From: Fimicolochytrium jonesii
Lineage: Eukaryota
Reading direction: 5' to 3'
DNA: 64,000 nucleotides
NCBI RefSeq assembly: GCF_025526975.1
Contig: NW_026515668.1
Coordinates: 992,001 to 1,056,000, forward strand
Shown here: piece after piece, positions 23,057 to 63,196 of the stretch
How the letters are laid out: every line of letters starts with the position of its first letter
Position numbering within the stretch: position 1 is the first letter of the stretch
Made by a program: the position numbers and the translations under genes
Notes under the pieces: generated by a model
What the model saw: the letters and a program-made list of their open reading frames with translations, nothing else
The model's database searches: none
What the model was told of the DNA's origin: nothing

Positions 23057-24449
<1,393 letters not shown>

Positions 24450-27710: not shown

Positions 27711-29412
27711 GCTTTGGGAAGGGTCTTGCCGACGACCCTTATGTGGGGCGTTGATTGGAAGCGGGCTGCGACGATACGCAGGCAGGCGACGGCGAGCGAT
27801 TTTCTGACAAATGTGGCCGTGTGTATGGGATACCTGCACAGGGGTGTCCGCTCACAGAAAGTAAAGATGGTGCCGTAGACGTAGGCAGTCGAGAAGGACG
27901 GATCCAGAAAAGTCTAAAACGATGGAGACGAGGTCAGGGCAATCAGGTATATAAGGCATGTGTGCTTTTTCTACCCCTTCTGCACAGCGCTTGAGGCCAG
28001 CGAGCGACAAAGAGGGGGACAGAACCGACGCGTTGGCTTGGGAAACCCCTGGTGACGTACCAAGTCCGCCCGAACGATGACGTGGCGTGGGGGTGTGCAG
28101 GCTTGCGGCGAGGAGGCGGAAGCTTCCAATTCTTTGATCACTGGATCACGGTTACTGCTGGAATTGCGAAATAAAGACAAGGTGAAAAGGTCACTACCAC
28201 CCATGCATGCGCAGGGTATCCGTCGGCGAGAGCTGAAGACCTTGCTTACCTTTGCGACGAGGTATTGCAAACGAAAGTAGGCCTGACTCTGACGTGGAAG
28301 TGATGATATGCGCGATATCCTTTTTCGACCAGTTGAGATATCTGCGTTGAGCGACGTTGGAGGAACGGGAGAAATCCATGCTGATTAACCAATACCCGAG
28401 GACTTGGACGTACGTACGGGTGTGATCAATAGTAATGCATGCCTTGGGTTTTGCTTAGTATTTGATGTGATGAAAGCGGGGGCGGGAAATGAAAGGGCAT
28501 TCACGTCGCGACTGCTGGGCAGCGCCGTCGTCATCATGTGCATCTATATTCAAAAACGCTAAAAATGATTCGTTCCTTGAGCCTTCTTCCCTCCTCGAAC
28601 GGAGCCTTCCTTTCCTGCGCCCCGTTTCACGCGGGGCAGTCCGCCTGGCTCATTTGGTCATCACACTCACAAAAACCCACGAGCTAAAAGCCAAAACATG
28701 GAAATAGGAGATATCTTGGCTCTTTTTCTTCTTCCATTGGCGATGCCCTTTCGATATGGCATATCTTCGCGAGCGAAATGAGAGACGGGAAGAACTTGGC
28801 GTCGGATTCTTGCATGTCTGGCGTGTTCGGATTGTGATGGCATGAGTTTTGTATGAGTTGGGAGGCATGACGTTTTCCCCATCCCCTTACATGTAATGAC
28901 ATCATGCTGCAGGGAGTCGAAGCTTCAGGGAAGCACTCTCAAGTTCAGCACTCAGTCGAGTTTAGAAAGCCAAAACCCGCCTGCAGAGTCACATGGGATG
29001 GGGAATGTGCATCCATGTCCGCAAAGCCTCAGACGGTCGATGATTCAGGCGGAGTTGATATGCGAGCGTGCGACTCAAATTGTTGGATATGAAGTAGCAG
29101 AAAACGACCATGGCAACCATTGTGCATCCTCACCACACCTGCCACTCCATCTACCCTCTGCATCTGGCCAAATCATCAGTCTTCGCTGACATTCGTCGTG
29201 AGTGGTATAGTAAAGTCTTTCCTGAACAGAGGACGCCCTGACGCGAGAGAGGTACCGCCCGATTTCGAGTGTGAAAAGGCTTGGCTAAGCACAATTTCGC
29301 GTGGGAGACAGCATGATGACGCATTGACGTCAGACCTTACGTCAATTGTCACGTGCCCGCGCGAGCTCCGATGGGTTTCGACAGCGCGTTCCCCGCGATT
29401 ATAACGTTGCGG

Positions 29413-35500: not shown

Positions 35501-36069
35501 TGCTGTTCATCTCCTTATTCATCATGTATGCTACTGACATTTAAGTCTCCAGGGATAGTGAAAAAAGCGGAATACTACCGCATATAGAAATAATGCTAGC
35601 AACCTATTTGACGGAACAGCTTCATATGTTCACACGTTCAGGCGATCGTCCGCTTGACATCCTGCACATGGTAACCCACCATCGGAAGCGGATCCTTTTA
35701 CAACTCGCCCTATCGCAGTACTGCAACTTCCCACACCAACCAGTTGTTACGATTCACAAAAGCCAAGGAAAGGAATCAGATGTCGGCATAATTCTATACG
35801 CAACCGCCAGCGAGTACGACACGACGGCTGAGGCGCAATATCTATACGACCGGACGTTGATGAACGTCGCGCTTAGTCGGGCAAGGCGAAAGACGGTGAT
35901 GATCGTGTCCGATTCGCTGTTACAATGTTTGACGGTAGTGGGCAACGACAACGCCATAGAAGGCTTTCAGCTGCTACATGGTCTGTCACGAGAGACGCAG
36001 ATGCGGCGTACGCACGTCGAAGTCGAATCGAAAGTGCTGGAAGAGCTATTTGCCAATGGCCTCCCGTAA
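29525..36069 (+). CDS. About 2071-aa fusion: UvrD/PcrA-type SF1A helicase + PD-(D/E)XK Cas4/RecB/TM0106-like nuclease + DNA2/UPF1-type SF1B helicase; introns 30391-30452, 31366-31430, 32568-32648, 33105-33166, 35494-35552
   Basis: All five GT-AG introns join the ORFs in frame. UvrD motifs: NAGPGTGKT, ITFTRNAA, LVDEYQD, VVGDDDQSIYLFRGA, LTSNYRT, STIHGAKGLE, EERRRVYVALTRAK. Nuclease: LSATKLSSYFVMHCPR, IKPDFL, IIDAK, QVAIYALIL, CRKCAHLQGC. SF1B motifs: VGPPGTGKS, LTAWTHSAVD, IEECS, IGDHLQ, TWRLN, TIHKSQGKESD, MNVALSRAR. Confidence 0.88.
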
Positions 36070-36240: not shown

Positions 36241-36362
36241 TATGGGGAGCCATCCGGGTCATAAATACCCGCTGCGAAATTTTTGGGTCGGAGCGCGCGT
36301 CCCCACATCTTTTTCGAGAAGTGCAGGATTCCGAAACTTTTTTTGAACGTTTTGACAGTGAC
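36241..36362 (+). repeat. Left terminal inverted repeat
   Basis: tatggggagc...gggtcataaa...; 36305-36345 is a perfect 41-bp inverted match to 58014-58054. Confidence 0.92.
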
Positions 36363-36405
36363 TGACAGCGGGGCTGGACATGAGAACACGGACCGAGGTG
36401 GGCGC

Positions 36406-36439
36406 TTACGTAAGAGTTTTCTGGGAAACTCTTACGTAA
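36406..36439. promoter_or_regulatory. 34-bp palindromic site 1 (14-bp perfect arms, 6-bp spacer)
   Basis: ttacgtaagagttt-tctggg-aaactcttacgtaa. Confidence 0.8.
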
Positions 36440-36588: not shown

Positions 36589-39578
36589 CTATGGAATCTG
36601 GAACCCTCCATCTCTGCATAGCCACACTGCATACCACAAGCGATCCGCTAGGTGGTCCGCATCTCCGAAACCTAGATGCAGCTCCAACGTGTCACTGCAA
36701 GTACGAGACGAAGGCAAATGATCCCCTTCATGCTGAGCGATATCCACAACTATCCTGTCCTTCAGCGGCAGTGCACGGCTTGACGTCCAGAAGAACAGCA
36801 GGTCCCGCAGAGACATGCCCCTTCTAGGTGCAGTGAGCGCCATGCGAAACCATCCCTTCACTAGTTCTGTCTTTTCCTCTTTACGGCGATCAACAATGGG
36901 AGGCAAATACACAATCTTCTGGAACAGCTGGTCGACATCCAGACGCCAATTGAATAGATGAAACAATACCGCGCATGGCGTGCCAGAGACGAAGTCGCCG
37001 ACCGAAGCGATCCCTTCCTTGTTCTGATGGGTGGCTGGGCGACAACAGGTGTACAAGACATGTTTGGTTAGATCTTGAGCAAAAGCGACGGGCTTGTCCG
37101 ATTCCGCTTCAATGGGGTAACCAAAATGCTGGCACAACGTGGTGACTCTGGAGGTATGGCAAGGGGGGGGGGGAGGGGGGGAGAGGAGTCGTTCATGTCA
37201 ATACACCACGACCACAAGAAGGAAAAGGAAAGATACAGAATAGCAGCGGGCAACGCACTCTTCCTCGACTTTTGCTGTCTTTTGTGCAGGAGTCAACGCG
37301 GGGCCTGAGTCGATCGCCATGTCGTCCATCCGGTAGTCCGTAAGAACCTTCACAACCCATCCAAGGGATCGGTTGAAACGTGATATCATCTTCGGTGATA
37401 TAAACCGGCAGGACATTTCATTTTCCGGATGACAGAGAACATTGATCAGGATGGGTGAGAGGGTCTCTGGAAACACATTGCCGTGCAATGCAGAGTGAGC
37501 CAACAATCGCCCGAACCCCCTGAAGTCCAGGTTTGCTGCCGGGATGCCGGACACCGGAAGGAAGCACTGTGCACCTTCCCAGTGAGGGTCGCTTTCTACA
37601 GTGAAAGTCTTGATGGCAATCTGGAAAGCTTCCTTGGTGAGACCGCCCCCGATGTGAAACCCCGCATCCACGCCGTCCTCGCCCACGAAATTGAACGATG
37701 ACTTAAACGTGGCGTTCTTTACGCCCGCGCACCAGGCCCAGACGGCATCCGCCACTGAATTCTTTATTCGACCATTCGGGAGCGTTACCAATTCACTATG
37801 AGTTACTATAAAGTGTTGAAAAATGGCACTTGTCAGTTCGACTCCACCCAAAGGACAGCGAAGACCCATTCTGATTACGCACTGTTAACCGTCATGTCCA
37901 CATCCCTGTCTTTGTTCAACCCATTGAGACGGTCACAGAAATGATTATACAAATCCTGATAAGACCAAGGGTCCTGTCCAGGCAGACATTGCATGCAACG
38001 ACCTTCGTCGCTGAGGTCCTTGGCGGTTGACTCTGCGATGCTCCCAGAAAACAGGTCTTCTGCATCACGCGTATGGTAGAAAGGGAAACGGGTCTTGTCT
38101 CGGGTGGAGGGCACTGCGGGCGCGCCGCTACTGGGTTCACGGGCCAGCAGTTCATTTGGTTTCGGCGTCGGTAAGATCAGATCATAAGATTCAGGCGTCT
38201 TAACGTACTTCGAGGCGTCGGCAGGGAGGGATGGCTGTGTGACCCGTCGCTTGGTCTGCAATCTTGTCCCATACGTGTGGCGCATGCCGGCACTGCCAGC
38301 AAATCCACCGAAGACGGACTGTGTATCCTGGACGGTGCCGCTGGACGTCGCTGGCACACTCCTTTGTTCCACCGTGTTGGGACACCGAGCATATGCCTCT
38401 GAAATGCGCTGTTGCGCTAGGTCGATGACAGCGAGTGACACCTCGTTAGGAAAGTGCCCCCGGGCGAACCCCATGCCTGGAAAGCATAACCAATTCTGGT
38501 AAGCCATTGCAACTGCGTGTGCACCGCCGTCATCTACACATCTTGCGCCGTTCCCGACATCCATCAGGTCCTGAAGAAACTGGAGAGCGCCCTCTCTTCC
38601 CTTCTTGTAAAAACGCAAATCTTTGTCTGTCTTGTCGTAGTAGCCGGTTTGCTCCTTAAGAAACATGCTTAAACACTGGTCGACCGGTAGTCTCTCGAAG
38701 GGCCTTGCGTTCTCCTCCGCTATCTTTCGTCTGACTTCCTCCAAGGTTGGAGGCGATGGGATTAAAAATGCATCATCAGGAGGTGAAGACAAACAAGCAG
38801 GCACGAGATGAGCTAGTTTTGGGAAAGCATCATCCGGAGGTGAAGGTGAACGAGCAGGCACATAAAGAGGTATGTTTGGGAATGCCAGACCTGGAGGTGA
38901 AGGCGAAGGAGCAGGCACGATATCTCCAGCTAACGGCGGAGCTCCCGGTTAGGCGATTCCCGTAGGTAGGCCAGGTGGGGGTTTCCTAGGGGAGATGTTC
39001 CATGTGCCACTTTTCGGCCCACGCAGGGCTTCAGACGTCTCCGTTTCGTCCTCTGGCAATCCCCCCTTTCCCTTTTCATATATGGCCCCAGCCCTGCTGC
39101 GGCCCACGGCGGGGATAATGCCTTGCATCATGTTAGTGAAGTCAGCCGTCTCACCATCCGAGTCCGACTCAATGGGAGGCCCCATGGCAGCGCTCTTGAC
39201 AGGATCAGACTGAATGTTGTTGTCTGGAGGGGGGGCACCGAAGTATCAGTAGAGGGGCGGGAGAGTGTATTTTGAGTACAGCGACATACAGTGCATAATC
39301 TCAAAGGCTTCCGGAATCTTCTTTGTCCGAAGGGATTTCTTATCGTGAAGAATGGCATCCCGGATCTCCATATGGATGAAGGCGTACTGGAACGCCTCTC
39401 GATCGCCCCACACGGAGCAATGGGGTTGAACCCAAATCCCTTTGTCTATCTTCTTCGCATATTCCCAGAAAATGTCCCACTTAACATCGTTTGGCTGCCA
39501 GCCGAGCGGACTGATATTCTGATGCCTGCGTTGTGAGAATTCCAATGCCCAAGGGGAATCTGGAAGATGGCGAAACAC
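36589..39578 (-). pseudogene. HECT-domain E3 ubiquitin ligase (transposon cargo); introns 37148-37258, 37806-37882 and about 39224-39290; one in-frame TAA at 38949-38951; 5' end unresolved
   Basis: N-lobe FVGEDGVDAG...GGLTKEAF...FRGFGRLLAHSALHG..FPETLSP; C-lobe LLFFWTSSRALP...LPSSRTCSDTLEL...GGF with the catalytic Cys. Introns restore the frame. Confidence 0.8.
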
Positions 39579-44367: not shown

Positions 44368-44641
44368 TGTAACGTCAGAGGAAACGTAGACGATATTGGG
44401 CCCTTCTGAGGGGGCTGAGAGCAGTGTATTGTAGTGAAGAAAAAGTAAGAAGCACTTTGCAGCGGCCGCTCGACTGACAGCTTTATATATGGGCTGCCAG
44501 TGGGGCTTGCGTGGCTTCAGTGAGGCTTGGCGCCTTATGTAATGTATCAACGAGAGGTCGGGTGGCCAGCCCGGGTCTCAGATCAAGTAGAAGTAAAGAG
44601 ATATAATATGAAATACAAGTGAAGATGAGATATCCCCGACA
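44368..44641 (-). repeat. 3' LTR
   Basis: Direct repeat of 49267-49540 with about a dozen substitutions counted by eye. Confidence 0.95.
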
Positions 44642-44989
44642 CCTCCCTCAGATCCTGAGGAGGGCGCCGAATAAATAAGAGGTGAACTGCGAGGGATATG
44701 TGAAGAAAGGGAGAGCTCATATTCATTTTAAAGTGTTGACGCACTCGTTCATTTAATAGTGTTGACGCACTGTGTGATGTGTGTGTTTGAGGCAAAGGCG
44801 TCCCTAAGCCAACGTCGTGTGTGATGTGTGTGTGTGTAAGGTCGGTTCTTGCGTCGCCGCGCGTGATGTGATGTAGTTTACATTGCTATTGTCAGCGGTG
44901 TGATTGATAGTGAGCGGTTCTTGCGGCGTCGCGCGTGTGATGTGATATGAGATGCTCTATGCTGTTTGTCTCCGTATCCACAAAGATTG

Positions 44990-47800
44990 TGGGTGAGCTT
45001 TTCGCCATCGTTTGTAGGCAGGCGTGTAGCGGAGTGCGGATTCGAGTTCCCAAGTAGGGTCAGGATAGCCAAGCCATTTGACTAGAAGATTTCGTACGGC
45101 GCGTCGCTCGTCGATGATATCTTCTACAACCCATTCAGGTTGTCCGCGTTCTTCGATTGGTGGAGGAGATTGTGGAACTGCACGTGGCGGATATTGCTCT
45201 TCGCGATGTGGTCGTAAAATATCGACGTGAAAGACGGGCCAGATGTCACTGATCTTTGATGGTGATAAATCGAGTTCGTAGGTATCAGGCAGGATGTGCT
45301 CCCAATGCGATGATTTTGAATGGTCCGATCCACGTAGCTGAGTATCGAAGTCCTCTCCAAGCGTCCACTTCTACGTTGATTCCTTGTCGATTTAGATCGA
45401 CGAGGTCGCCAATTTTGTATGCGATTGGCGGCGTTTGACCTTTGTCGTGTTGACGTGCAAATTGATCTTGCGATCTCTGAAGGTTTTCGCGTACGATACG
45501 GGCAATTTCTTCCTGCCCTTTCTTGAAGAGTTCGATTTCGTTTCGATCTACAGCTCGAAGTTTGAGTTCTTGTCCTTCGAGTGTTGGATTCCAACTTGAG
45601 AGGATTGGAGAGCGTCCGAGATCTACTTCGAATGTCGATAAACCTTCATATTCCTCCCTTGGAGCGGTGTTGTATGCGAAATCATACTCTTGTAGCTTCT
45701 CCACCCAATTGGCTTGTCTTCTGCTCAAATGAGGTTGTGTTTGGATGAATTCAAGTCCCTTGTGATCGCTAAAACATTGGAAGTAACGACCGATGAGATA
45801 TGGTCGGTTGGCGACCAACATCTTGACAAGAGCTAAGAGCTCCTGTTCAAGCGTAGGATATCGAGTTTCTGCGTCCTTCTTCTTTCTAGAAAAGAAGACC
45901 ACAGGCCGGAGCCGAGGTAACTTCTTCCATTCTCCGACGAGAGTAGGCAGATTCGTAGGGATTGCTTCATCGCCAGAAGGTTGTCCAATCCAGCCAGCGA
46001 TAGCGTAGCCTGATGAGTCGGTATAGACGTAAATCAGCTTGGTTTCATCGATTGTTGCTAGCGTAGATGCATTGATCAACGCTTCTTTCAAATTTTGAAA
46101 TGCCTCTTGTTGCCCAGGACCCCATCGAAATTTGACTTTCGAAGATTGAATACTTGATAGGGGCAGAGCAATGTCCGAATAACCTTGTACGAAGTTGAGG
46201 AAGTAATTCGTGAACCCGAGAAAGCTTTGGACTCCTTTTGTTGACTTTGGAGTAGCCCAATCATTGATAGCTTAGATTTTCGAGGGCGCGATGCGAACAC
46301 CATGTCTTCCGACAATATGTCCACACCATTCAAGTTCTTCTTTAGCCCATACGCACTTTGAAGGCTTGATGAAAAGGGCGTGTTCTTCAAGTTTCTTCAG
46401 GATACGATCGACGTGTTCCCGATGTTCGGCTAAGGTCTTCCAGAAAATGAAAATGTTGTCCAGGTAGGTAGCGAGGAATTCGTTGTAATCTTTATGGAAG
46501 ATCTTATTCATAAGACATTGAAATGAGGCAGGTGCGTTGGTAAGCCCGAATGGCATAACCAAATACTCGAAATGTCCGAAGCGAGTTCGTGTTGCCGTTT
46601 TTTCTCGATGTTGTTTTCGGATAAGAAGACGATGGTATGCTTCTCGAATATCGAAAAGCGTAAACCATTTACAACCTTGAATCCGATCCCTCATTTCACG
46701 AATATTGGGTAAAGGAGTGCGATCTTTCTTGGTGACGGCGTTGAGACCTTGGTAGTCCCAACAGATGCGTAATCCGCCATCTTTCTTTTTCGCAAAGACA
46801 ACACTAGCTCCCCAGGGACTTGAAAAGTGTTGTATCCATCCTTTTTCGAGCATCGAGGTGATTTGTTTCTTGAGTTCAGCGAGTTCTTCTTTGTTCATGT
46901 GCCGAAGAGGTTGCCAAACAGGTTCAGCACCTTCAGTGAGTTCGATCTTGAAATTATCTTCTCCTCGATCAGGGGGTAGACCTTCTGGTTCCTTGAAGAG
47001 CGTATTGACGTATTTATTTAGGATATCCTTGAGATGTCCTGGATTTCCTTTAAGCTCTTGAGGAGCGTCTGGTATTTTGTTAAGAGGGAGGCGACAGACC
47101 GTGTCTTTTTCAAACTTGTTCCGTGGCCAAGCCTTATTAAATCGCTTGGAAGTCATTTCTATGACTTGAGGATTACGAAGGGCATCGGCTTGAGCGAATC
47201 GAGAGACGTAATGAGGTGCGGCTTGTAAAGGACGTGTATCCACAGGTTTGATGATTCGAACAGGTCAAACGGGTCTTTTGTCATAGACCGGATCTCGTTG
47301 CACATCGGAGTAAGGATTGTTGTGTTTCGGGATGTATTTGACGTCTTCCCAGTTTCTTGAAGTTCTTCCGCACTTGATGGTGACAGACTGCGGTGCGTTT
47401 GGCCTAGGGCCATAATCGGTCCAGCGAAGAATAGGTAAGGTACTCATCGAGAATTGTTCAGCGTAATTAAAGAAACGCCAGAAAGGCATTCCAATAATAG
47501 CGTCGTAAGCCAGATTACTGACTAGCCAGGGAAGTTGTCCAACTAAGAAAAGCGACTGAGATTCGAGATCCCATAGATCTAACTTTTCCGACACGACCGT
47601 GTCGAGAATCATGTATGATTCTTTGTCGGCCAGCCATATCTACTTCGGTTCGATACGTTTCTTGGGAAACTTGTGCTTTTCGACAAATGTCTTGTCAAGG
47701 AATAACCCAGTTGCGCCGCTATCGAAAAGAACACGAGCAAACTTGTTTCCAATGCGACAATGAGAGACCCAGAGTCCAGCAGACAGTGGTCCAAAGGCAG
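44990..47800 (-). pseudogene. pol remnants: aspartic protease, RT, RNase H, truncated integrase, chromodomain
   Basis: RT SSPWGASVVFAKKKDGGLRICWDYQGLN...YLVMPFGLTNAPASFQ...YLDNI; RNase H YTDSSGYAIAG...EQELLALV...SDHKGL; chromodomain EWVVEDIIDERR..LVKWLGYPDPTWE. Several frameshifts. Confidence 0.9.
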
Positions 47801-48059
47801 GTTGATCGGTAGGATTGTATGTTGTAGGCCAAGCAGAGCTACCGAGGGGCTCTATCGACCTTGGAAAAAACTCGAAGATTGATTTGTAGTAGTATTCGTG
47901 GTATTTGCAGAGTTGACGGCGTCATTGAGAATTTCCGTAATGCGTGACCCAGCATCAACCTGATTGGCTGAACCTTGATTAGGTTGGCAACTGCGCTGCA
48001 GAGTTTGAGCGCCACAACCGCGCTCTTGAAAACCGCCGCGTCGGTTCTGGGTTTGCGAG

Positions 48060-49173
48060 CCTTGCTGTCAATTTTCGGGATTTGACCGGCATCCAACTCT
48101 CCAATGTCCCATTTTATTACAAAGGGGACAAGGAGTTGTTGGACGTTGACGAGGAACATGAGTAGTTTGCCATTGTCCACGTTGACAAAAGGGCTGTTGA
48201 CGTTGGTAGGGACCTTGATCTGTAGTGAGACGACTCACTCCAGGGGGATAGTATGACGTACTGAGGGCATTGAGCCCAAAGGTCATATCATCTAAGTCTT
48301 GCTTGAATTCCGTAATTCAAGGATTGGTGTAAGGGGCAAATCGTCCGCCACGACAACCGCCACGACTACCTTGACCGCGGCTGGCTCCACGGCCGCCACA
48401 AGCACTCGATGCCGAGGCAATCGAACAAGGGGTATTGGCTTGGTTGCCGTCAGTGACCCCATGAGCTACATGAGCACGACGGGCTGCAGTGATAGCTTGA
48501 TCGAGAGTGATAGGGGTGTTGATGTTGGTAGTCTGCGAGACTTCGAAGTTCGTAACGGCTTCAACGAGATAATGACCGATTACTGTATTCTTGAGAGGAC
48601 CGGCCTTGAAGTATCGAATCTGATCGATAAGGGGAATGGTGCCTTGGGTGTTATCGAGACGGTGAGCAGCTTCGAGCTCATTATTGGTGTCTTGAAACTC
48701 TTCTCAAGAGAGTCGTCGAGCTTGAGGCCGGAGAGCTTGAGCTCAATAGTATTACGCAAGTTGCGAGGATAAAAGTGAGCGACAAGAGCCTTTTTAAAAG
48801 CTGACCAACTTGCGGGAGCGCCGGAGGCGTAAGTCGTATTGTACCACTCGAGGGCAGTACCCTTGAGGTAGGTAGTGAGCGTAGGGGCGTACTCTGCCAT
48901 AGTAAAGGGTATGGCATTGGCAGCTCCAGTACCGTCTGTTCCAGCTGCTACAGCCGGGACAGTGAGAGACTCGAGAAAGTTGTGGTGAGACGTAACGAAC
49001 TCTTCGATCTTTTTGGCAGCTTTGGCGCCATCGTATTCGACGAGCTTGTTCTTGCAAGCGTCCATAAGAAGTCTGAAACGTTTGGCTCGTTGGGTTTCTT
49101 GAGTAACAGCACGCTCCTGGTTAGCGAAAGCAGCTGCAACAGCCGCAATGATAGCTTGAGTCTGTCTGTCCAT
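48060..49173 (-). pseudogene. gag remnants with CCHC zinc knuckle
   Basis: YLKGTALEWY...SWSAFKKALVAHF (retrotransposon gag); CPLCNKMGHWRVGC knuckle at about 48085-48130. Confidence 0.85.
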
Positions 49174-49266
49174 TCTTGCTTGTGAACGTGTGTAAGGGCG
49201 ACGTGCGGTAGAGGGGCGACGTTGACGGTGAATGTCTTGGTGAGGCGGCGGTAGGTGGTGCTACCA

Positions 49267-49540
49267 TGTAACGTCAGAGGAAATGTAGACGATATTGGGC
49301 CCTTCTGAGAGGGCTGAGAGCAGTGTATTGTAGTGAAGTAAAAGTAAGAAGCTCTTCGCAGCGGCCGCTCGACTGACAGCTTTATATATGGGCTGCCAGT
49401 GGGGCTTGCGTGGCTTCAGTGAGGCTTGGCGCCTTATGTAATGTATCACCGAGAGCTCGGGTGGCCAGCCCGGGTCTCGGATCACGTAGAAGTAAAGAGA
49501 TATGTAATGAAATACAAGTGAAGATGAGATATCCCCGACA
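49267..49540 (-). repeat. 5' LTR
   Basis: Direct repeat of 44368-44641. Confidence 0.95.
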
Positions 49541-51847: not shown

Positions 51848-54800
51848 ATGGACAGCGCCGACATGGACGTTGTCGAGTACGTTGACCATTTCGATCACGA
51901 CGACAACCTCAGCGACAACGTCAACGACAACCTCAGCGACAACCTCAGCGACAACCTCAGCGACAACCCGTCGGATGCTGAAACACTCGAAGCGTCAGAC
52001 CTACCCATCTCTGGATCAGCCGCATCAACGGCAACAAATCGTCCGGCCCTGCTGCCCCCAGCCATTCTCGAACCCTTGATAACGCAAGTCCAAGGTCGCC
52101 CGTGTTGCGTTGTTTGCCACAGCGAGCTGGCCGACGTCTCCGATCTCTTCCGATGCCGCCTGTGCGATGTTTATCTTTGCAACTGCCACACTCCCTCGAA
52201 GCAGGACACCATGCGTCTCCGGGTGATGCACGTTGTTGCACACATGCGGATAACAGGCCACATGGATCTCGATTGGATCTCCCTTACCCAAACGGCCGTA
52301 TCAACGGCAACTCGCATCCAATGTCAAGACCACCCGCACGTTACCAACCCCTACACTCTCTTCTTTGATACCCACACCCGAACCATGAAGTGCGACAGCC
52401 ATGCAGGAGACTCGGCATGCATCCTTTCGGAGTCCAACGGCGTACAGTGGCTCGGGGGACCCATGGGATGCCAGCCCATTGCTAAGGAACCCCGTAGCAA
52501 GGCCGCGGTTGAGGAGCTCCTCCACAACTACCTACTGCTCTCAAGGAACCCGACGACGTTGAAAGAACCCCAATGGGTACAGGCTCTGCAAGTTGCAACT
52601 GAGGAAGCCGCAGCGGATCTCTTGTTCCACACCCGAGTGGTCGCGTATGGCAACTGGGACGCATTCAGGTTGTACCAGCTCAGTCAGCTCCAACGGGAGC
52701 GGATGGCTTGGCGCCGGGAAGTGAGCATCCTCAATGTATGCATAGCTTGGAAGCGAGACAGCGAAAACGTGGAGTGGACTGTTGGAACTCTCACGTTTCC
52801 CGCCTCCGCCTACAGCGGTTCCTTGACCGCCCTCCGCGAGATCGACCCAGAGGTGCGGATCGTCCGCGCCAACAGCTCGCTGAACGCCTCGGGGACCCTT
52901 TGCTTCCCAGGGGAAGTCGAAGAACGCAATCGCTTCCCACCCCCCGCCATCCCAAACGCCAATCAAGACACCTCCCTCCCAAACGCCGATCAAGGCACCC
53001 TCCAACCCTTCACGACAGCATACGTCAGGGTTGCCAAGCAGATCATCGACGATATGTTTGTCGGCGCCTCTCTCTACCATGTCCTTGTCCCGGAGGTGCA
53101 CGTGGACCTCCTGAAGGTGATGAGCGCCTTGAAAAACCCCGACAATGTCCCCGAGGTCGTCCAGAAGATTCTTGTGGCCCCACCCCAAAAACACCAATGG
53201 TTACTCTCCCCAGACCTTGCGATCAAGCAATGGATCAGAGGGAGTTGGCCCCGCTTGACCGACGAACAGGTCACCGCCGTCGCTCTGGCCGTCGACCCCG
53301 TTGATAGAGGATCACCTGCATTCGGCATCATGGGGTGGCCTGGTGTCGGGAAGACAGAGCTCATCGGCTGCATCATCGATCGACACGACCATCAACTGCC
53401 CACATCTCCACGACACGGTCGATAACCAAAGCACAGATGCCAATCAATTCGATAACCAAAGCACAGATGCCGATCAGTGCCCTGATCTCCACGACACGGT
53501 CGATAACCAAAGCCCTCAAGACGGAGAGAATGGAGGTCACATTCTCGTCACCAGCAATAGCAACGCTGGAGTGATGGTCGTGCTATCCAAGATCATCGGT
53601 TCCATCGGGTCCGAAGCTGTCGACCTCAAATCCGACATCTTCTGGGTCCAGAAATCCATCTTCGATCGATCTTCCATTCGCGACGAGGCCCTTCTTGCTC
53701 TGAACAAGGGCCAAGCCTATCAAGATATCCTCCAGCAGCTCATTGATAATGGCGAGCCCTTCCCGGTTCTGCCGTTCTGGGGCGCAAGCATCAACTCCGG
53801 CAGCTCAATCTCCCAGGGGTATCAACCCCACCCTTGCTCGGTGACACCCCGGGAATGTCTCGAGCTTCTTGAAGCACACCGCCAGCGGCCGCTCGTTGGC
53901 CTCAACATCGGCAAGTTCAGATGGGGCCTCAGCCGGATCAAGGCTACCCTTTTTTTGAAGAAGAATATCTTCGTCGCCACTGTGGGCATGTGGAAAGTAA
54001 CTCTTCCTTTCGTGAGGAAAATTGGGGTCAAGATCGGAACTATCATCGCGGATGAAGCCTCCGCCATGTACGAAGCGTCCATCGCCGCCATGGCCACCCC
54101 CAACCCCACAAACATCGTGCTCCTTGGCGATCCCAACCAGCTCAGACCACACGTGGAGACTCGGGGCGGCGTTGCGAACGCCATTGCTGGCTCCCTCATT
54201 GAGCGAATGGCGTACACCAACAACCATCCCCACAAGTGGCTCCGCACCCAATTCCAGCTTTCGCCGAAGCTGTTAACCCTGCAGAACGTCCTTTTCCTCG
54301 GCAACCACACCAGTCAACATCCCGCGGAGGAGCTGAAGACCCGATGGCAAACCACCCCTACGGGCGTATCAACGGCGACCTCGTCGACCCAAACCACCCC
54401 TAGGAGCGTGTCATCGCTGACCGAGGAGCAATTGGCTTTCATCCACGTTGCAGGCAACAAACAACCGCATCCCACGATTTCGTCGTCGTACCGCATCCCA
54501 CAATTTCGAGGAGAATGAGACGACGATAGAAGATGGCGAAGCTGACGATCTTCTCGCTTTCCGTTCATCGGAACCCTTGGGTGTGGCTAGCCCATACAAG
54601 AAGCTGAAGCTGTCAACGTGCGACATGTTTCAAGGCTCCGAGTATGATATTGTCATCCTCTCCTTGGTGCGGGCCGCAAATGGGTGTGACATCGGCTTCC
54701 TTTGTGAGGCCCAGCGGGTCAACGTGGCTTTTTCTTGCGCCAGGCTCGGCCTCTATGTCTTCGGGGATCTGCGGGTGGTCGGTCGCGCATCTTGCATGTG

Positions 54801-55753
54801 GTTGATGATTGCCCTAAACAAGGACAGCGTGTGGTCCTACAACCAACCCGTCTCAAACGCGAATCAAGGCACCTGCACCGTCTCCCACGCCGATTGCTTT
54901 CTCAGGATGGAACCCAAAACCGTGGAAAACAGTCTGAAAGGGAAGCAACCCGCCCTTGAGGACTTCCCCGAGATTCGTTGGATGTGTTGCTTTGGCGAGC
55001 CTCCGGAGCCGGAGCCATTGTTAAAGGATGAAGTGTGGTGGAATCACCTGACGACGCAGTCCCAACAGACGGAGTGGCTGCAGTTGATCGCCAATGAAAT
55101 GGAGATCATAGCCCCGGCCCGCACTCAACCCGTCTCACATGCAGACCAAGGCACCCGCTCAGCCAACACCACCCGCGCTCAACGCACCCGCTCCGCCAAC
55201 ACCACTTATCTCGTCTCACACGCCGATCAAGGCACCTGCTCCGCCACACACCACCCGCACTCAACCCGTCTCACACGCCGATCAAGGCACCCGCACGCGA
55301 CCCGTCCCTCTGCAAAGGGCGCAACCTTGCCCCGTCAGGCTGCCTTCGCTGCCTTCGCTGCATTTGCTGAAGGTGTGGGTGACCGGTGATCGGGGACTCA
55401 CGATCCGCAGCCAAGTCGACGATGGCTATCGGGTCAAATTTTGTCCGGTCCGCCGAATTGAACTCAACGACCAGGAACGCTTCTTGACGTTCCATTTCTC
55501 GGAAGGAACTGAGACGCTGAACGTGGAAACCCCATCAATCAACCCGAGTCAGCCGATCAAGGCCCCCATATGTCCATGGCAGCAAACCTGCATGGATCTG
55601 GTTGCCGCTGGCTCCCTGAGGGTCAAAGTTTTGGAAGAATGCATCGTCAACAAACAATTGAACGGCTTCATCAACCTGACCAGACGCCACAATGAAAACC
55701 AACCCCCGGGAATCAACATCAGCCATGCACAAATCCTCACGCTTGAGGATTGA
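51848..55753 (+). pseudogene. Divergent UPF1/NAM7-like SF1B helicase with N-terminal Cys/His (CH) zinc domain; frameshifted (transposon cargo)
   Basis: CH-like CVVC...CRLCDVYLCN...HVVAHMRITGH...CQDH..TNPYTLFF; helicase motifs GWPGVGKT, ILVTSNSNAGV, IIADEAS, LLGDPNQLRP, LRTQFQ, TCDMFQGSEYDIVILSLVRA, RVNVAFSCAR. Frame breaks near 53380-53420, about 54500 and about 55300. Confidence 0.78.
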
Positions 55754-56117: not shown

Positions 56118-57763
56118 CTATGCTGCAATGCCATTCTCTATCATATGAGTGACGAAGGCCACCATATCCATGTACGGTTGCCTACCGTGGGTGTCTTCGA
56201 AGATTCCCGCGGGGATTGTAGCTCGGAGGAGGTTGTACTGTCCTTGAGTTACAGGGCACTGTATCTTCTGCACTTTGACATGGTCGTATTTGTCTTCATC
56301 ACTGTCCTCATCGTAATTCCCACCCTATAGTCCTCCCATTGCCCTTGGAGTTCATTGGCAACATGCAATACATCGGTGTCGAGAGAGGCATCTCCGCTCA
56401 ACCTTTTCAATTCCATCCCCTCAATCCAGAGCTGTCGCGGGGTTCGGTTGTTTGTATAGGGACCCTTGATACTATGGTGATTCCATTTCCCTACGAACTC
56501 GTACGAGTACATTTGAATGAGGAGCAGGTATATGTAGTGCAAACACCACATCTGCAACTCGTCATCATGGGATAAATCTCCGTTATGTTCCAGCGCGCGC
56601 CAGCTGGCGCAAAATATTCTACCGACATTTCTTTGCACGTCCTTCCAGAGGCGTTCGATGCGTTGATTGTGAACGGACTTGCCTGTCAGGAATGAGGTTG
56701 GGTTTCCTCGAGTTACCTCCATCATGAAGTCGCGGATGCCGAGGTTTTCGCTGCCTTTGTCGCATCGGACGCGTTGGGGACAACCCAACTCCGCAAGGGC
56801 TTTTACAAAGGGTGCCAGCACGGTTTCTTTCCGGTTATTGTCCGCGACTTGGAGATGCGTAATCAACCTAGTTTTCCCATCGAGGCCACCATGAACGACA
56901 AATCTCCAGTTGATCAGCTTGTGCCATCCATCCATATGCCACAGTGACTTAGGATGAGCCACCCAGTATTCCACTCGCTCAATCTTCTTTTTAGTGCGGG
57001 CATCGACTCCTGTTGGGTCCACCAGGCCAAGTACATCCCAAACCCGTTGCCTCGTCACGCGGTAACCTCGCATCCTCAGGTCACCTTGCAACAGTTGGCC
57101 TCCGTCATGAACCACGAATGTTGCCTTCAGGTCACGGACGAGTAGTTCCAAATCCTCGTCCGATATCTGCCACCAATATTCGCGCCGGCTAAGATTTAAG
57201 CGTTGAAGCCGCCGCTTGATTGTGGCCTCACTGACGCCCATATACATGGCAATCACGCGGTTGGAGAGGCCCTCTCTGTACCAGTGGAGCATCTTCGTTT
57301 CGTCGATCTCTGCGGGCGGCCGCCCTCTTGGCCGGTATTCCTTGTCCTCTTCCTGTTCATCCGAGTTGTCGAATGACTCGTGCCAGCCGGCGGCTGCGGC
57401 TGGGCTCCATACGCCGGGCGGACTTTCAAGTCGCTCAAGAACGGTCCCCACCTGCCACCGGGCTTGATCCAGAAGGATGGTGAAGAAGTTCGGGTTCCGG
57501 TCATCCTCGCCGCCAAAGTGACCTAGAAGTGTAGACAATCGACGGTGGTGTTTGTCGACAACAGTTTGCTCCACATATTCCCCATGGTCTCTCCTCTCCG
57601 CTATGTCTCGAGCTTGGCGCATCATATCAAGTATGCTTTCTAAGAACCATTCTGTTTCGGTCCACTGCCACCCGCTCAGAATAGAAGCTATACGCAAGGC
57701 CTTGCAGGTCAAGAACAAGTCGATTACCCGTCCGTCTTGACAATAAAGCGAAAACTTACCCAT
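56118..57763 (-). CDS. IS3EU/IS481-like DDE transposase (HTH + integrase core); probable 1-nt frameshift near 56315 cuts off the natural C-terminus
   Basis: HTH GLSNRVIAMYMGVSEATIKRRL; triad WHMDGWHKL / RVRCDKGSEN / GKSVHNQRIERLWKDV; WNHHSI..RTPRQLW. An alternative frame continues YDEDSDED..VKVQKIQCPVTQGQ...GRQPYMDMVAFV to a stop at 56118. Confidence 0.88.
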
Positions 57764-57942
57764 GGTTTACAGTTAGGGACAGCTTGACCCTGAGGATTCG
57801 TTCGATGTGCTTAGTATGAGCGATGGCTATAAGAGTATTTGTCGCACTTTGGGTGGTCGGTTTCGCAAGGCGTTAGCACAGATAGCAGTTAGTAACAGAC
57901 CTCCGGCTGTTACCAGCTGTGAGTTATCTGTAAATTGTCTGC

Positions 57943-57976
57943 TTACGTAAGAATTTTCCTGGGAAATCTTACGTAA
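57943..57976. promoter_or_regulatory. 34-bp palindromic site 3
   Basis: ttacgtaagaattttcctgggaaatcttacgtaa. Confidence 0.8.
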
Positions 57977-57996
57977 GCAGAGAGACAAAACCGACT

Positions 57997-58118
57997 GTCA
58001 CTATCAAAACGTCCAAAAAAAGTTTCGGAATCCTGCACTTCTCGAAAAAGATGTTGGGACGCGCGATCCAACGCAAAAAATATCCAAAATCCATTTATGA
58101 CCCTGAATGCTCCCCATA
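57997..58118 (-). repeat. Right terminal inverted repeat
   Basis: Reverse complement of 36241-36362, ending gctccccata. Confidence 0.92.
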
Positions 58119-58162
58119 AAAGCCTTCTATGGCGTTGTCGTTGCCCACTACCGTCAAACATT
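58119..58162 (-). repeat. Inverted copy of 35924-35967 (right half of the transposon target site)
   Basis: aaagccttctatggcgttgtcgttgcccactaccgtcaaacatt is the exact 44-bp reverse complement of helicase last-exon sequence 22 kb away. Confidence 0.92.
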
Positions 58163-58367: not shown

Positions 58368-60036
58368 TTAAATGTTATTTAGGTTGCATAAGGCTTTCTC
58401 TAACTCGAAGATTGTCAGATCATCGACGAAGGTTGCTTCTCCGATTCCGTGCATCAGAGGGGTGCGCTGAAACCCCCCTCGGCCAGCCGTAACATCCTTC
58501 AAGCTTTGCGCGCAGCAGGAAGATGTCAGCTTGGGATGGGAGATGGCCAACCCGAGATTCCTCATAAGGTTGATAACCCGCACGGCTTCCGCTGAAGAAA
58601 GTAGGCCTCGGTTCCGGGCAACGATTGTCGTCAACGCCATGTCTATGCAGACTGCTTCTCCATGCAACAGCGACGACTCGGAGGAAAGAGCGGCCATTTC
58701 CAGACATGGGGAGAACGTGTGACCGTAATCCACAACACGACGGAGGTTGAACTCCCATAGGTTAGGCTACAGCCAGAAGCAGTCAGTAGAAGCAAAACGA
58801 CAGACTCTGCAAAGCTTCTCGTACCTCTAATTCCTCCAGCATTCCTTGGATTGCCCGTCGCATTATTTCTTCGCTGTTCAAGTAAACATCGCCTTTAAAG
58901 GAGGAGGGGTCCTTCGCCATTTCCTCCAGCAGGACGAAAAGTTTGTAATCTTTAACACATGCCATCTTGAGGATTTCCGCGGAACCATTTCGGACATGGC
59001 GGTCAGCGAGGGTTCTGAGGAAGCTGATGTCAACGAAGACAGCCAGCGGGGCACAATAAGTCCCGATCTTGTTCTTGCCGCCGTTGAGATTGACGGCCGT
59101 CTTCACACCGACTGCCGCATCAACCATTCCTATCAGGGTGGTGGGAACCTTGATGATGGGGGTATTGCGGCGATACAGGTTCGCCGCCAGACCAGCAATG
59201 TCGAGCGTTACTCCGCCACCAATAGCTATGATCGGCTCTCTGCGTCTGCAACGTGTTTACAACATGTGTAAGTTCGTACATGTGATCATGGATATCGGGA
59301 AGAGACAGAAAGTACCTGTCAATGTTGAACTTCTGCATCGCCGTGCAAATGGACAGCACCTGCTCAATGTTCTTGTTTTCCTCGTCCGGTTTGATGCGAT
59401 GGAGGGCTATCTGAACATTGTGATGGGCGAAGTACTGGACGAGGAAAATCAGTGGTGTCGGCGTAGATGGTGCATACAATGGGGCAGAAGATCTAACCTG
59501 CTGCAATGCGGCGTTATACAAATCGCACACATTTGCGTCAATAACTATGAACCGACGAACTTGCGTGGCGGATGACGGAAGAGAAGTGGCTGTGCTTAAC
59601 TGTGGAGGGTGTGCATCATCAACTGTGCGCAGAAGTGTCTGTAAAGAAGGCTTCAGCGTCGAAATAACCAGAAATCTATAGTCATGCAAATCGTTTGGGC
59701 AACATGAAACTAGACAGTTTGCAATACCTTGTTGACAATATCGAAGAGGGGGGTAACCACTTCGATGGTGTACCTCACGGGCATGACAGCTTCGACCATA
59801 AAGGTACCGGTGCTAAGCCCATCCAACCCATTCCCAGCCAAGCCATTCAAGCCGACAAGATTGCACTCGGGATGGTGTTGAAATTTCACGACCGATGCAT
59901 CCTCTTCCGCAATGCTCACACCACTATCCCTGCGGAAGTCAGCATTGACCTTGGTTTGCAGCAGTATTTTATCGGTGGTCTGTTCCATTTGAACGTGAAG
60001 GGGCACTGCCACTAGTGCGTTGTCGTTGAAAGGCAT
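58368..60036 (-). CDS. EEVS: Sedoheptulose-7-phosphate cyclase, 2-epi-5-epi-valiolone synthase (EEVS) type, multi-exon
   Basis: RRFIVIDANV; EENKNIEQV; AIGGGVTLDIAGLAANLYRRNTPIIKVPTTLIGMVDAAVGVKTAVN; KNKIGTY; NGSAEILKMA; MLEELE|PNLWE..LRRVVDYGHTFSP; LHGEAVCIDM. The MLEEL and DxGHTFSP fingerprints are EEVS-like, not the DDGS-type MLELE and AYGHTWSP. Confidence 0.85.
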
Positions 60037-61047
60037 GACGAATTGATGAGATGTCGCCACTGTTGGCCGGGATGGTAGGTATTCTCAATTATTCTCAAGC
60101 AAGTCGATGAGAACGGCTCTATTTGTCGATGTATGTCGCCCTGGGCAACTTTATAGATATCGGTTTCGGGGGAAGTTCTTCCTCGGGTCTTTTTCCCATC
60201 TTCTCCCGCTGTTGCATGTTCTCTCCATCTCGCATTTTTTTCCGCTGTATCTCATCAGCAAACTGGACCGATTCCTTCACTGCAGTCTTGCAAGAGGGGG
60301 GTGTTACATGTGCCATCTGGCCATTTCATGTTCAGCCGCCTTGACCAGGCACGATCGTCGCCCGCCGAGCCCAATCTGTCGCCTTCCACTGGACGGATAC
60401 CCTAGGGAAGCCCATGGGATCATGAAGCTAACAGGATCTGTGGTACGGGGTGGAAAATCATCAGGTTTCGACAGCGCGTGCGCCGTCAAAGGGCAATTTC
60501 CACGCATAGACCCGTCACAAAATCTATATAGAATTGAAATTTGAGACACCTATACGCCTGATATGAAGAATCTACCAACCTCCAAGGGGCCAGTTGGAGA
60601 TTAAGAGTCCTGGTGCAGCGGGTTCTACATGAGCATAACATTTTCCGCAATTAAGGGTGATGATGGCGGCAAACAGGTGTTGCGGCGGGAGTTGCGAGCT
60701 TATCTCTTGGTATCCCCCGCTACTTTTTCCGCCGAGCTCTGCTACATGTGATCGTTGAGGAACGCCTCCGAGGGGGTACATCATGATTCTTGATAATGAA
60801 TGCCCTTGCAGGTTGCAGCGTGTCACCTGCGACAATGAATCTTCGAAGTTTTTGCCTTGCCGTCGGGGAGGGTTTTTCCGTGCGCCAGTATGTATCTTGA
60901 TACCTTGGTAACAGGACGAGCGATCATAGAGCCTGAGGGGGAATAAATGGTAGCAAAAAAAGGAGCAGAAACTTCGAAAAGTGGTTCATATAATTCTGAG
61001 GAGAGACTACGATCTGCCTAACTACTGTCCATTGCATTTGCTTCAAC

Positions 61048-63196
61048 ATGCCACCATCAGCGTCAACGGGTCGGTCTGGGTCTTTGAGTAGCGTCGACAA
61101 CAGGAGTATCGCTAGCCACTTAGCCCTGCCGTCTGGAAGGGCGGCAGACACACCGCTGGAAATCGCTGCGTGCCTCCTCCGCCGCAGCCTTGAGAGCCCC
61201 AATGAACTGGATTTCGTGAAACAGGCTTTGCATATTATAGAAGGAATCGATGAATACACCGCCGCTGCTTCAACCCCGGCTAGTGACTCGTTACTGAAGC
61301 ATGTGGAGACAACAATGCGACAAGATTGGGATGCGGTTTATCAAAATGTATGTGAAGTCTTTGGCGCTGCTGCTTGCCTATGTGTTATGCCATCGCCTGA
61401 GATTGCATATATTTTCAAACAGGGGCATACAAAGTTTCACCAATCAGCCAATTGTTGCGCCGGCAGTTTTGAGGCTGCCTTTGTGTCCTCCATGGTGTCC
61501 GCCACTCGAGCTACGCGAGTTTTGGAAGTGGGAATGTTTACTGGAACCACAACAATGGCTATAGCCGAGGCATTGCCAACGCATGGCAAGGTGGGTGCGT
61601 CGCGGCTCTTGATCCGAATGGTGATCGCATATTGATTTTCTTCAAAAGGTCTACACATTGGAGATTGAACCCTACTTGGCGAAACTTGCGCAAAACGCTT
61701 TTGATGCTGCAAACTTAGCGGACAAGATTGAGATCAAGCTCGGAGACGGAGCCGAGTCGCTTAGCAACCTTGCTCATCAGGGCATTAGTTTTGATCTGAT
61801 TTTCATCGACGCGGACAAGCAGGGATATCGAAAATACTATGATACCATCATGAAGAGCGGCCTGCTCTCTCCCAAAGGAACATTGATTGTTGACAATACA
61901 CTCTTCAAGGTACGTCTGAGACTGCTCGACTGCCGGACTGAGAAAACTCGACTGCTAACACTGGTTAAAGGGAAAGTACCTCTTGAATCAACCAGTTTCC
62001 GATGACCCGAACGCAGAAGCGCTTCGCCTGTTCAATCAGCACGTGCTGTCCGACAAGCGAGTCTCAGTAGTTGTGCTTCCCATTCGCGACGGTGTGAGTG
62101 TGATCACTCGGCGAAGGTTTGTTCCTTTCTGCTTTCCACCTTTAATGAGGCCTGCGTAACTCGTCTTATGCCCTTCCTCTTAGCAGTCAGCAACCCGATG
62201 CATCGAGCGATTCCGTCATTTTAGGCGAAGGAGGACTTGACATACTTCAACGACTAAAACTTTCGGACAAAGTATCCCTTGTGACTGGTGCGGGGCAGGG
62301 AATTGGAAGGGCATTCGCGCATGCGCTGGGCGAGGCTGGTGCGGCCGTCGCTGTGGTCGATATAGCGAAAGTCAAGGCAGAAGTGGTGGCGAAAGAGTTG
62401 AAGGCTAAGGGCATTAGGAGCATAGCTGTTGGAGCCGATGTTACGAAGAAATCAGATTGTGTTCGGTGAGCAATGACGTATTGCATCCCATCGATGTTCC
62501 TGACACTAATGTCCAATGTTCCAGAATGGTCGAAGAAACTCTCACTGCGTGGGGCCACCTGGATATTGCGGTGAATAACGCCGGAGTGAACTTCAACGGT
62601 GCTGCGGAAGACATTACCGATATTCAGTGGGATACAACGTTCAATGTCAACACGAAGGGCGTGCTCTACTGCTGCCAGGTCCGCGCTGCCTCCTCAATAT
62701 TGGCAAAATTGGTATGGTGCTGACTCAAGATGTTCCGACAGGCTGAGGCGAGATACATGCTACAAAGTCAGCGACCTTGCTCCATCATCAACACCGCGAG
62801 CATGGCCACTCTTCTTGTGCCGCACCCGCAGAAACAGGCGGCATATAATAGCAGTAAAGCTGCCGTTGTTAAATTGACGCAAAGCCTTGCGGTCGAATGG
62901 GCTGACCGAGGCGTACGAGTAAACGCTATCAGTCCTGGAATCGTAAACACTGCTCTGATCCAGGTTGGTAGTAGCATTGGAGCGCTTCACGTCGTAGATG
63001 TGCTGACGACAAATATCCGGAACAGGAAAACCCAGATCTCAAGCCTCTCGTGAAGACTTGGCTGGGCCAAATCCCGCTGAATCGCCTTGCTGAGGTTACA
63101 GATCTGCAGGCGGCCGTAGTGTATTTGGCCTCGGATGCAAGCTCGTATCTAACTGGGCAGAACTTAGGCATTGAGGGAGGACAAAGTGTGATCTAA
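61048..63196 (+). CDS. MT-Ox: O-methyltransferase / short-chain dehydrogenase fusion (MT-Ox), 8 exons: 61048-61347, 61423-61590, 61649-61909, 61971-62116, 62184-62465, 62525-62678, 62742-62963, 63026-63196
   Basis: OMT motifs [44 protein letters not shown] motifs [27 protein letters not shown]. Intron 62117-62183 joins the two in frame, and the SDR has no in-frame ATG of its own before its first motif. Confidence 0.88.

Follow-up and report, generated by a model that had tools for sequence, protein, structure and literature searches.

On balance, we consider it probable that the chytrid Fimicolochytrium jonesii carries an intact pair of EEVS and MT-Ox genes that makes gadusol, and that both genes are members of a fungal clade which is allied to green algae and acquired them independently of the animal copy.

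The two genes lie head to head in the window, which is the whole 64-kb stretch of DNA analysed here. The earlier note placed them about 1 kb apart; their start codons are separated by 1,011 bp (60037..61047), and this spacer is likely to be a shared divergent promoter. The cyclase gene (58368..60036, minus strand) has five exons (60036-59728, 59638-59498, 59434-59316, 59245-58825, 58766-58368) and four GT-AG introns of 58–89 nt, and encodes 462 amino acids. The MT-Ox gene (61048..63196, plus strand) has eight exons (61048-61347, 61423-61590, 61649-61909, 61971-62116, 62184(62187)-62465, 62525-62678, 62742-62963, 63026-63196) and seven GT-AG introns of 58–75 nt, and encodes 567 amino acids. The stop codons lie at 58368–58370 (minus strand) and 63194–63196 (plus strand), and both genes end where they were first said to end. 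Neither model contains an internal stop, and with 11 GT-AG introns in total the description of an intron-rich pair free of disabling lesions stands. The cyclase model is identical to the annotated F. jonesii protein KAI8826904.1, and the fusion model differs from KAI8826905.1 (P0121) by one residue, through an alternative acceptor 3 nt apart (566/567 amino acids). These matches also bear out that the host is an early-diverging fungus. GC3 is 0.61 and 0.54 for the two genes and 0.56–0.69 for eight other frames in the window.

Judged by its sequence, the cyclase is an EEVS-type sedoheptulose-7-phosphate cyclase of a His-less clade rather than a canonical EEVS. It contains the Pfam domains DHQ_synthase and DHQS_C, and its best solved match is ValA (PDB 4P53), with bit scores of 331 for ValA, 224 for DDGS and at most 128 for DHQS. 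The structure model also fits ValA best (TM 0.95 by target, rmsd 2.1), with fold E-values for ValA and DDGS that lie close together (5.9e-36 vs 6.0e-34). In the tree the protein groups among EEVS with CetA and BE-orf9, apart from a Nostoc DDGS. The motifs MLEELEPNLWE (residue 325) and DYGHTFSP (residue 343) are present, where DDGS has MLELE.PNLHE and AYGHTWSP. Two of the three named EEVS diagnostic residues are kept in the alignment to 4P53 and 5TPR: Leu329 (58828..58830, minus strand) stands at the position of ValA Leu267 (Glu in DDGS) and Asp343 (58728..58730, minus strand) at that of Asp281 (Ala in DDGS), and mutagenesis has confirmed the roles of both residues in ValA (PMC10666671). At the position of the third, ValA His360, alignment to 4P53 places Gly425 (58482..58484, minus strand), which is neither the His of fish EEVS nor the Thr of DDGS. 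Hence motifs, score, tree and two residues uphold the EEVS reading of the earlier note, and the His360 position departs from it. A DDGS identity is ruled out by the lower score, the tree position and a match to none of the three DDGS residues (Glu254, Ala268, Thr347; 0/3). DHQS is ruled out by its low bit score relative to ValA and by a score of 209.6 against the DHQS model TIGR01357, below the cut-off of 305. No NCBIfam model names the cyclase. R216, D232, K238, N248, E280, K283, H346 and H365, which we chose as presumed fingerprint positions of EEVS, are all present and are conserved in 118–121 of the 121 aligned rows. Bacterial EEVS (ValA, CetA, BE-orf9) share with the chytrid cyclase the fold, the metal- and NAD-site residues, Leu267 and Asp281, but they feed aminocyclitol pathways, keep His360 and have no MT-Ox partner.

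His360 is replaced in 49 of the 121 aligned homologues, the green-algal and fungal rows; the two fish rows keep His. The position takes A, T, S, Q, G or C, a free variation that looks like relaxation rather than new specificity. Only green-algal and fungal EEVS among the aligned rows carry the motif GLNGL (38/49 His-less rows, 0/71 His rows, 0/8 fish or unnamed-marine rows). In F. jonesii it lies at residue 62 and ends an N-terminal extension encoded by exon 1 (59728..60036, minus strand), and residues 1–63 have low confidence in the structure model.

The neighbouring gene encodes a fusion that, by its sequence features, we regard as a true MT-Ox orthologue. With predicted splicing, an O-methyltransferase half (61048..62116; Methyltransf_3, related to MysB) precedes an SDR oxidoreductase half (62184..63196) in one frame. 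The protein aligns end to end with zebrafish MT-Ox (zgc:113054), has its domains in the same order, shares its motifs and is identical to it in 275 of 554 columns (50%); the resemblance to vertebrate MT-Ox noticed earlier is thus real. Its methyltransferase half carries the same 14-residue motif and VDN motif as the zebrafish protein. The SDR half has TGAGQGIG, an acidic residue after strand 2 (VVDI), NNAG, a Ser and YxxxK (Y471–K475 of KAI8826905.1), as well as LVPHPQKQ and a 16-residue stretch. Such motifs form the SAM site of O-methyltransferases and the NAD site and Ser-Tyr-Lys motif of SDRs. The fusion depends on intron 4 (62117..62183, acceptor 62183/6), whose removal joins the two frames; left unspliced, the frame stops at residue 305. 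Splicing of this intron, and hence the fusion, is supported because full-length fused homologues exist at 49–69% identity. Separate OMT and SDR genes are ruled out, as the SDR frame has no ATG before the Rossmann motif. Against bacterial SDRs, the fused proteins form one SDR clade (86/92).

The chytrid copy is real but it is not unique among fungi. Both genes occur in each of the six fungal genera found: Fimicolochytrium, Thoreauomyces, Rhizophlyctis, Saitoella, Savitreella and Protomyces. In Thoreauomyces they are neighbours too (consecutive accessions on one contig), in Rhizophlyctis they lie on different contigs, and 45 and 66 locus tags separate them in Saitoella and Savitreella. Opposite the 75-nt intron 1 of F. 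jonesii, the Thoreauomyces model has an insert of 25 residues, suggesting that the two have this intron in common. With green algae and animals added to some chytrids and Taphrinomycotina, the distribution is as patchy as the earlier note supposed. Nor is the chytrid pair the first fungal copy: Saitoella complicata A0A0E9NBI3 and A0A0E9NBN1 and Protomyces A0A1Y2FDJ3 are leaves in SI file 4 of a 2020 study, the main text of which does not name either genus (PMC7826186). Our literature search, which went without two key Osborn 2017 papers, found no publication on chytrid or fungal gadusol. The locus is neither new chemistry nor a new system, and a published supplement already showed ascomycete homologues.

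Both gene trees place the chytrids (Fimicolochytrium, Thoreauomyces, Rhizophlyctis) and Taphrinomycotina in one clade, beside or inside the green algae, and split the eukaryotic pathway into green algae and fungi on one side and animals and unnamed marine eukaryotes on the other. The order inside the fungal clade agrees with fungal taxonomy; in each tree the genes of the ascomycetes Saitoella and Protomyces come out as sister to those of the chytrids, and the Saitoella pair is not adjacent. The nearest non-fungal relatives are green algae (Klebsormidium, Chromochloris, Coccomyxa; PMC7826186), with 49–54% identity for EEVS and at most 56% for MT-Ox, and their cyclases have the loss of His360 and the GLNGL motif in common with the chytrid enzyme. 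Zebrafish EEVS (LOC100003999) and MT-Ox are likewise an adjacent two-gene pair (PMC4426668), but the vertebrate genes form a separate branch in both trees, and the two fish EEVS, 44–45% identical to the chytrid cyclase, keep His360 where the chytrid has Gly and lack the GLNGL extension. Hence "vertebrate-type", as the pair had been called, fits the predicted chemistry but not the ancestry, which the trees and AU tests show to be of green-algal type. It might be argued that fungi and animals both inherited the pair from an early opisthokont ancestor, MT-Ox being known in chytrids, Taphrinomycotina, Artemia and vertebrates. We consider this highly improbable, and effectively ruled out, since AU tests, run under LG+G4 after quick trees had been seen, reject fungi and animals as one clade (p 0.0009 for MT-Ox, 0.00002 for EEVS), and GLNGL is absent from the fish and unnamed-marine rows.

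The sequences therefore point to green algae as the likely source of the fungal pair, in a gain distinct from that of the animal copy. Green-algal monophyly is not rejected (AU p 0.09 for both genes), so the trees do not fix the direction of transfer, and just three columns are unique to all seven fungal rows, which leaves likelihood, and not many fixed signatures, as the basis of the fungal clade. Branch depths (1.08–1.17 for chytrid-Saitoella, 0.84 for Fimicolochytrium-Rhizophlyctis, 0.84 for Danio-Artemia) do not tell old inheritance from later fungus-to-fungus transfer. We can speculate, quite tentatively, that a single capture from green algae preceded the chytrid/Dikarya split, dated to 1,401–896 Ma (PMC12592215). 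Algal gadusol would then have been the first fungal sunscreen, with some chytrids and Taphrinomycotina still keeping it and other fungi having switched to the DDGS-mycosporine route. The same trees also fit an alternative in which the pair passed between chytrids and Taphrinomycotina at a later date.

Beyond eukaryotic relatives, scanning bacterial and archaeal genomes with a single MT-Ox protein returned nothing. An alignment brought up 41 loci, of which 38 hold the SDR half alone (one of them near a cyclase) and 3 the OMT half alone; as none combines the two, the scan gave no unfused bacterial precursor cluster. In metagenomes the fusion occurs on 7 of 80 loci kept from 564, none of the seven with a cyclase within the available DNA. 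None of 47 cyclase loci on viral contigs has MT-Ox within 5 kb, so nothing points to viruses as carriers of the pair. The ESM Atlas contributed only chordate MT-Ox and EEVS/SPC clusters.

What the analysis shows is the structure, orthology and linkage of the genes, their active-site residues and their tree position; expression, the reactions, the product and a protective role we infer. Gadusol, which serves fish eggs as a UV sunscreen, is the likely product by analogy with zebrafish, whose zgc:113054 converts EEV to gadusol and whose two genes are enough for its synthesis in yeast (PMC4426668). By the same analogy, the cyclase would use NAD+ and a metal ion, the SDR half would oxidise a ring hydroxyl with NAD+, and the methyltransferase half would methylate the enolised product with SAM, yielding a UVB absorber and antioxidant. 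As of PMC7826186, no member of the green-algal and fungal clade had been assayed.

Gadusol is perhaps not the end product, because the closest studied relatives, the clusters of green algae, also encode an ATP-grasp enzyme and a second O-methyltransferase, with gadusol-core MAAs as their proposed products (PMC7826186). An unlinked or downstream ATP-grasp ligase could add an amino acid to a gadusol core, the route suggested for the green-algal compounds prasiolin and klebsormidin. Such a ligase is used in fungal mycosporine synthesis (PMC10057719), and the window covers just 804 bp beyond the MT-Ox stop. Yet neither additional green-algal gene is seen in the window: tblastn with the Nostoc ATP-grasp protein MysC finds no match across the 64 kb (best E 1.5), in line with the earlier note, five frames downstream of MT-Ox have no Pfam match, and the left flank is mobile-element DNA. 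We regard an MAA as an unlikely product, but one to be taken seriously. The mycosporine cluster itself (DDGS, OMT and ATP-grasp; Phaffia, PMC10057719; Ava_3858, PDB 5TPR) uses the same substrate class, the chytrid methyltransferase half is related to MysB (39%) and is the only MysB match in the window, and in Phaffia the cyclase and methyltransferase genes are also divergent. In the chytrid, however, the cyclase lacks Glu254 and Ala268 of DDGS and the OMT is fused to an SDR.

We think it rather improbable that the His-less cyclase makes a different C7 cyclitol, or that the fusion methylates another position to give an isomer or relative of gadusol. The replacement of His360 in the green-algal and fungal rows would fit such a change, as would the identity of the methyltransferase half to MysB, 39% for the fungal and 50% for the fish protein. 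Against it, Leu267 and Asp281 are retained, variation at position 360 resembles relaxation, and Klebsormidium, with a His-less enzyme, is reported to hold gadusol-core compounds (PMC7826186). Least credible of all is that the locus is a silent relic, cargo of the adjoining mobile element or algal contamination. The inverted repeats of a mobile-element-rich region do come within about 200 bp of the cyclase stop, but the pair lies outside them, which rules out cargo, and both frames are intact through all their introns. Contamination is ruled out by the 2.24-Mb contig and by the orthologues in three chytrid genera, whose order in the tree follows taxonomy, and the Thoreauomyces insert also speaks against this group of readings.

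An intact pair that makes gadusol thus remains our preferred reading. It carries a pathway so far demonstrated in vertebrates alone into a new fungal phylum, and because the pair is compact and the species named, a single extraction plus one yeast experiment could tell whether fungi make gadusol. Yeast production of gadusol might also draw on the fungal enzymes. The trees single out a His-less cyclase clade, and their two branches sharpen the open question of where vertebrates obtained the pathway. If the early capture proposed above is true, a transfer from algae to fungi would have been dated, and the pathway would have been captured twice independently, once by fungi and once by animals.

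Two intact genes stand head to head at the right end of the window, their start codons separated by 1,011 bp in our reading of the sequence and splice models. The cyclase gene (58368..60036, minus strand) is modelled with five exons, four GT-AG introns (89, 63, 70 and 58 nt) and 462 aa, and its product matches Pfam DHQ_synthase and DHQS_C. The fusion gene (61048..63196, plus strand) is modelled with eight exons, seven GT-AG introns (58–75 nt) and 567 aa, and its product matches Methyltransf_3, then adh_short. The first model is the same as the annotated EEVS-type cyclase P0001; the second is one residue apart from the annotated MT-Ox P0121, at an alternative acceptor. In the sequence records both proteins belong to Fimicolochytrium jonesii, their accessions follow one another and their contig measures 2.24 Mb; F. 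jonesii is a chytrid (Spizellomycetales, Powellomycetaceae). An undamaged cyclase and OMT-SDR fusion, about 1 kb apart in an early-diverging fungus, is what the earlier note had described, and that description holds. Such a divergent arrangement points to a promoter used by both genes.

The composition of the gene pair is that of the window, so we reject contamination. The left flank, from 29 to 58 kb, is mobile-element DNA. This block (29405-58162) comprises UvrD and SF1 helicase frames (30448-36069), a HECT-like frame (36592-37197), a gypsy element bounded by terminal repeats of 274 nt (44368-49540), SF1 helicase frames (53259-55389), an rva_4 integrase with HTH (56252-57766) and two sets of inverted repeats (36241-36439 / 57941-58118; 35924-35967 / 58119-58162); a 22-kb DNA transposon bearing a helicase is possibly present here. 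An 85-nt repeat occurs at 18033 and 29413. Roughly 200 bp separate the end of the inverted repeats from the stop codon of the cyclase; because the pair lies outside them, we reject mobile-element cargo as well. Ordinary host genes encode polyubiquitin (23117-24449), an SNF2-type helicase (8531-11070) and a bZIP factor (25895-27851), and a frame at 15215-15913 matches Pfam Mito_fiss_Elm1 (E 2e-10), a family known from plants and bacteria.

The fusion protein shares 275/554 identities with zebrafish MT-Ox (zgc:113054, P0326) and the motifs of both halves, in line with the close resemblance that the earlier note had described for the SDR half. A search with an alignment of fungal MT-Ox picked up 41 loci in bacterial and archaeal genomes, and at none of them do both halves occur. 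The Thoreauomyces MT-Ox model P0122 carries a 25-residue insert where the window gene has its 75-nt in-frame intron 1; the annotation has probably left an intron in place there.

Among solved structures the cyclase scores best against the bacterial EEVS ValA (331 bits; Anabaena DDGS 224, DHQS at most 128), and ValA is also the top fold match of its AlphaFold model (pLDDT 79.5), with DDGS a close second. Three residues are described as separating EEVS from DDGS, two confirmed by mutagenesis (PMC10666671, in part). Those two, Leu267 and Asp281, are retained as Leu329 and Asp343, but the third, His360 of ValA, is Gly425. The cyclase is thus EEVS-type, of a His-less clade, and no canonical EEVS. 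The His360 site is substituted in 49 of 121 aligned homologues, the green-algal and fungal rows, and both fish rows retain His. The N-terminal motif GLNGL occurs in 38/49 His-less rows, 0/71 His rows and 0/8 fish or environmental rows.

We infer the chemistry, expression and protective role of the F. jonesii pair. Sedoheptulose 7-phosphate from the pentose-phosphate pathway would likely be cyclised to EEV, whose ring hydroxyl the SDR half would oxidise; the product would then enolise and be methylated by the methyltransferase half, probably giving gadusol. Passages of PMC4426668 postulate this oxidation-enolisation-methylation scheme, and report that zgc:113054 converts EEV to gadusol with SAM and NAD+ and that the two fish genes are enough in yeast. 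The main rival is further conversion toward gadusol-core MAAs, since green-algal clusters hold an additional ATP-grasp enzyme and such MAAs have been proposed as their products (PMC7826186, in part). Against this, the Nostoc ATP-grasp MysC has no match in the 64-kb window, although that window ends only 804 bp past MT-Ox; the earlier note had likewise seen no ATP-grasp gene there.

The trees tell a different story about ancestry. In the MT-Ox tree (26 rows picked from matches, mixture model), chytrids and Taphrinomycotina group at 100/99, and Fimicolochytrium joins Thoreauomyces, then Rhizophlyctis, in the order of taxonomy; the groupings are unchanged under LG+G4 and in a 56-row quick tree. 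The EEVS tree (36 rows, with three bacterial-type rows as the root) unites the fungi (96/93; under the mixture model, with 40 rows and no fish, 96/91) with the green alga Apatococcus as sister (99/97), nested in a green-alga-plus-fungus clade (100/99). Fish and six environmental rows (100/100) stand apart from it. The cyclase thus falls among green-algal EEVS rather than with DDGS or DHQS. Trees of the two MT-Ox halves agree with the whole-gene trees: fungi are 100/99 inside greens plus fungi (100/100) for the methyltransferase, and 94/94 (unstarred), with core chlorophytes at 95/91, for the SDR, where no single branch separates off the outgroup. AU tests under LG+G4, on groups defined after quick trees had been viewed, reject fungi plus animals as one clade (p 0.0009 for MT-Ox, 0.00002 for EEVS), chytrids plus core chlorophytes without Taphrinomycotina (p 0.0006) and, for EEVS, chytrids plus all greens without Taphrinomycotina (p 0.015); they do not reject a single green-algal clade (p 0.09 for both genes). 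From trees, AU tests and the GLNGL motif together, the fungal pair is one lineage allied to green algae. Hence the label "vertebrate-type" fits the predicted chemistry but not the ancestry.

On these sequences the donor was likely a green alga, with the direction of transfer left undecided by the trees. The Apatococcus lobatus EEVS (P0032), which has Gly at the His360 site and sits away from other trebouxiophytes, may mark the lineage of the donor, but could also reflect back-transfer out of fungi or long-branch attraction. Chytrids are dated as branching 1,401-896 Ma (PMC12592215, in part), and branch depths do not tell inheritance from the first fungi from a later chytrid-Taphrinomycotina transfer. 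Because inheritance would require losses in most fungal phyla, we lean slightly towards the later transfer, or towards an unsampled algal lineage that gave the pair to fungi twice.

Both genes are adjacent in Thoreauomyces humboldtii, on different short contigs in two Rhizophlyctis rosea records, and separated by 45, 66 and 4 locus tags in Saitoella, Savitreella and Protomyces; many green algae have both. Only four chytrid clusters are among the best 120 of 613 MT-Ox matches, which suggests that, judged from the best 120 matches per search and given that gene models can be missing, the pair is patchy even inside chytrids. An environmental EEVS (P0005 / P0380, JGI) groups with chytrids (99/96 to 100/99), so more chytrid-like lineages likely carry the gene. 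Cyclases 37–44% identical to P0001 occur on 47 viral contigs, none (0/47) with MT-Ox within 5 kb; on one (L127, 4881-5999) a cyclase with EEVS-type motifs adjoins SDR and other enzyme genes.

Brine shrimp (Artemia franciscana, XP_065566058.1; P0287 / P0372) encodes a complete MT-Ox, located on a sequence of 51 Mb, that is sister to the vertebrate enzyme (100/99), and animals group with five environmental rows (100/99). Gadusol of Artemia cysts is cited in part of PMC4426668 as dietary or symbiont in origin. If Artemia has EEVS too, the animal copy may be older than vertebrates, or animals may have acquired it on two occasions. The environmental proteins nearest the animal genes are P0143, P0180, P0198, P0215 and P0216 (MT-Ox) and P0424, P0428, P0446, P0481 and P0487 (EEVS). 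The P0215 and P0428 clusters have contigs of equal size (9,931 and 8,649), as would be expected of a linked pair; one member, P0544, is named as a cyclase-methyltransferase fusion.

In full-text searches of the literature we found no paper on chytrid gadusol genes or on gadusol from a fungus's own genes; Osborn 2017 (two papers, outside those searches) surveyed where EEVS and DDGS occur, reportedly with fungi included, and may mention Saitoella. In 2015, according to PMC4426668, MT-Ox was known outside vertebrates only from Aureococcus and Coccomyxa. In the available part of the PMC7826186 supplement, EEVS of Saitoella and MT-Ox of both Saitoella and Protomyces stand in the trees as leaves beside green algae, and 18/18 "chytrid" matches fall in arsenic sheets. 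The accessible portions of PMC10057719, PMC12904256, PMC13273134 and bioRxiv 10.64898/2026.10.26.762048 contain no chytrid or fungal gadusol report. The F. jonesii pair is real and intact, and as a new member it extends a pathway already known to a further phylum. Its predicted chemistry is like that of vertebrates and its descent green-algal.
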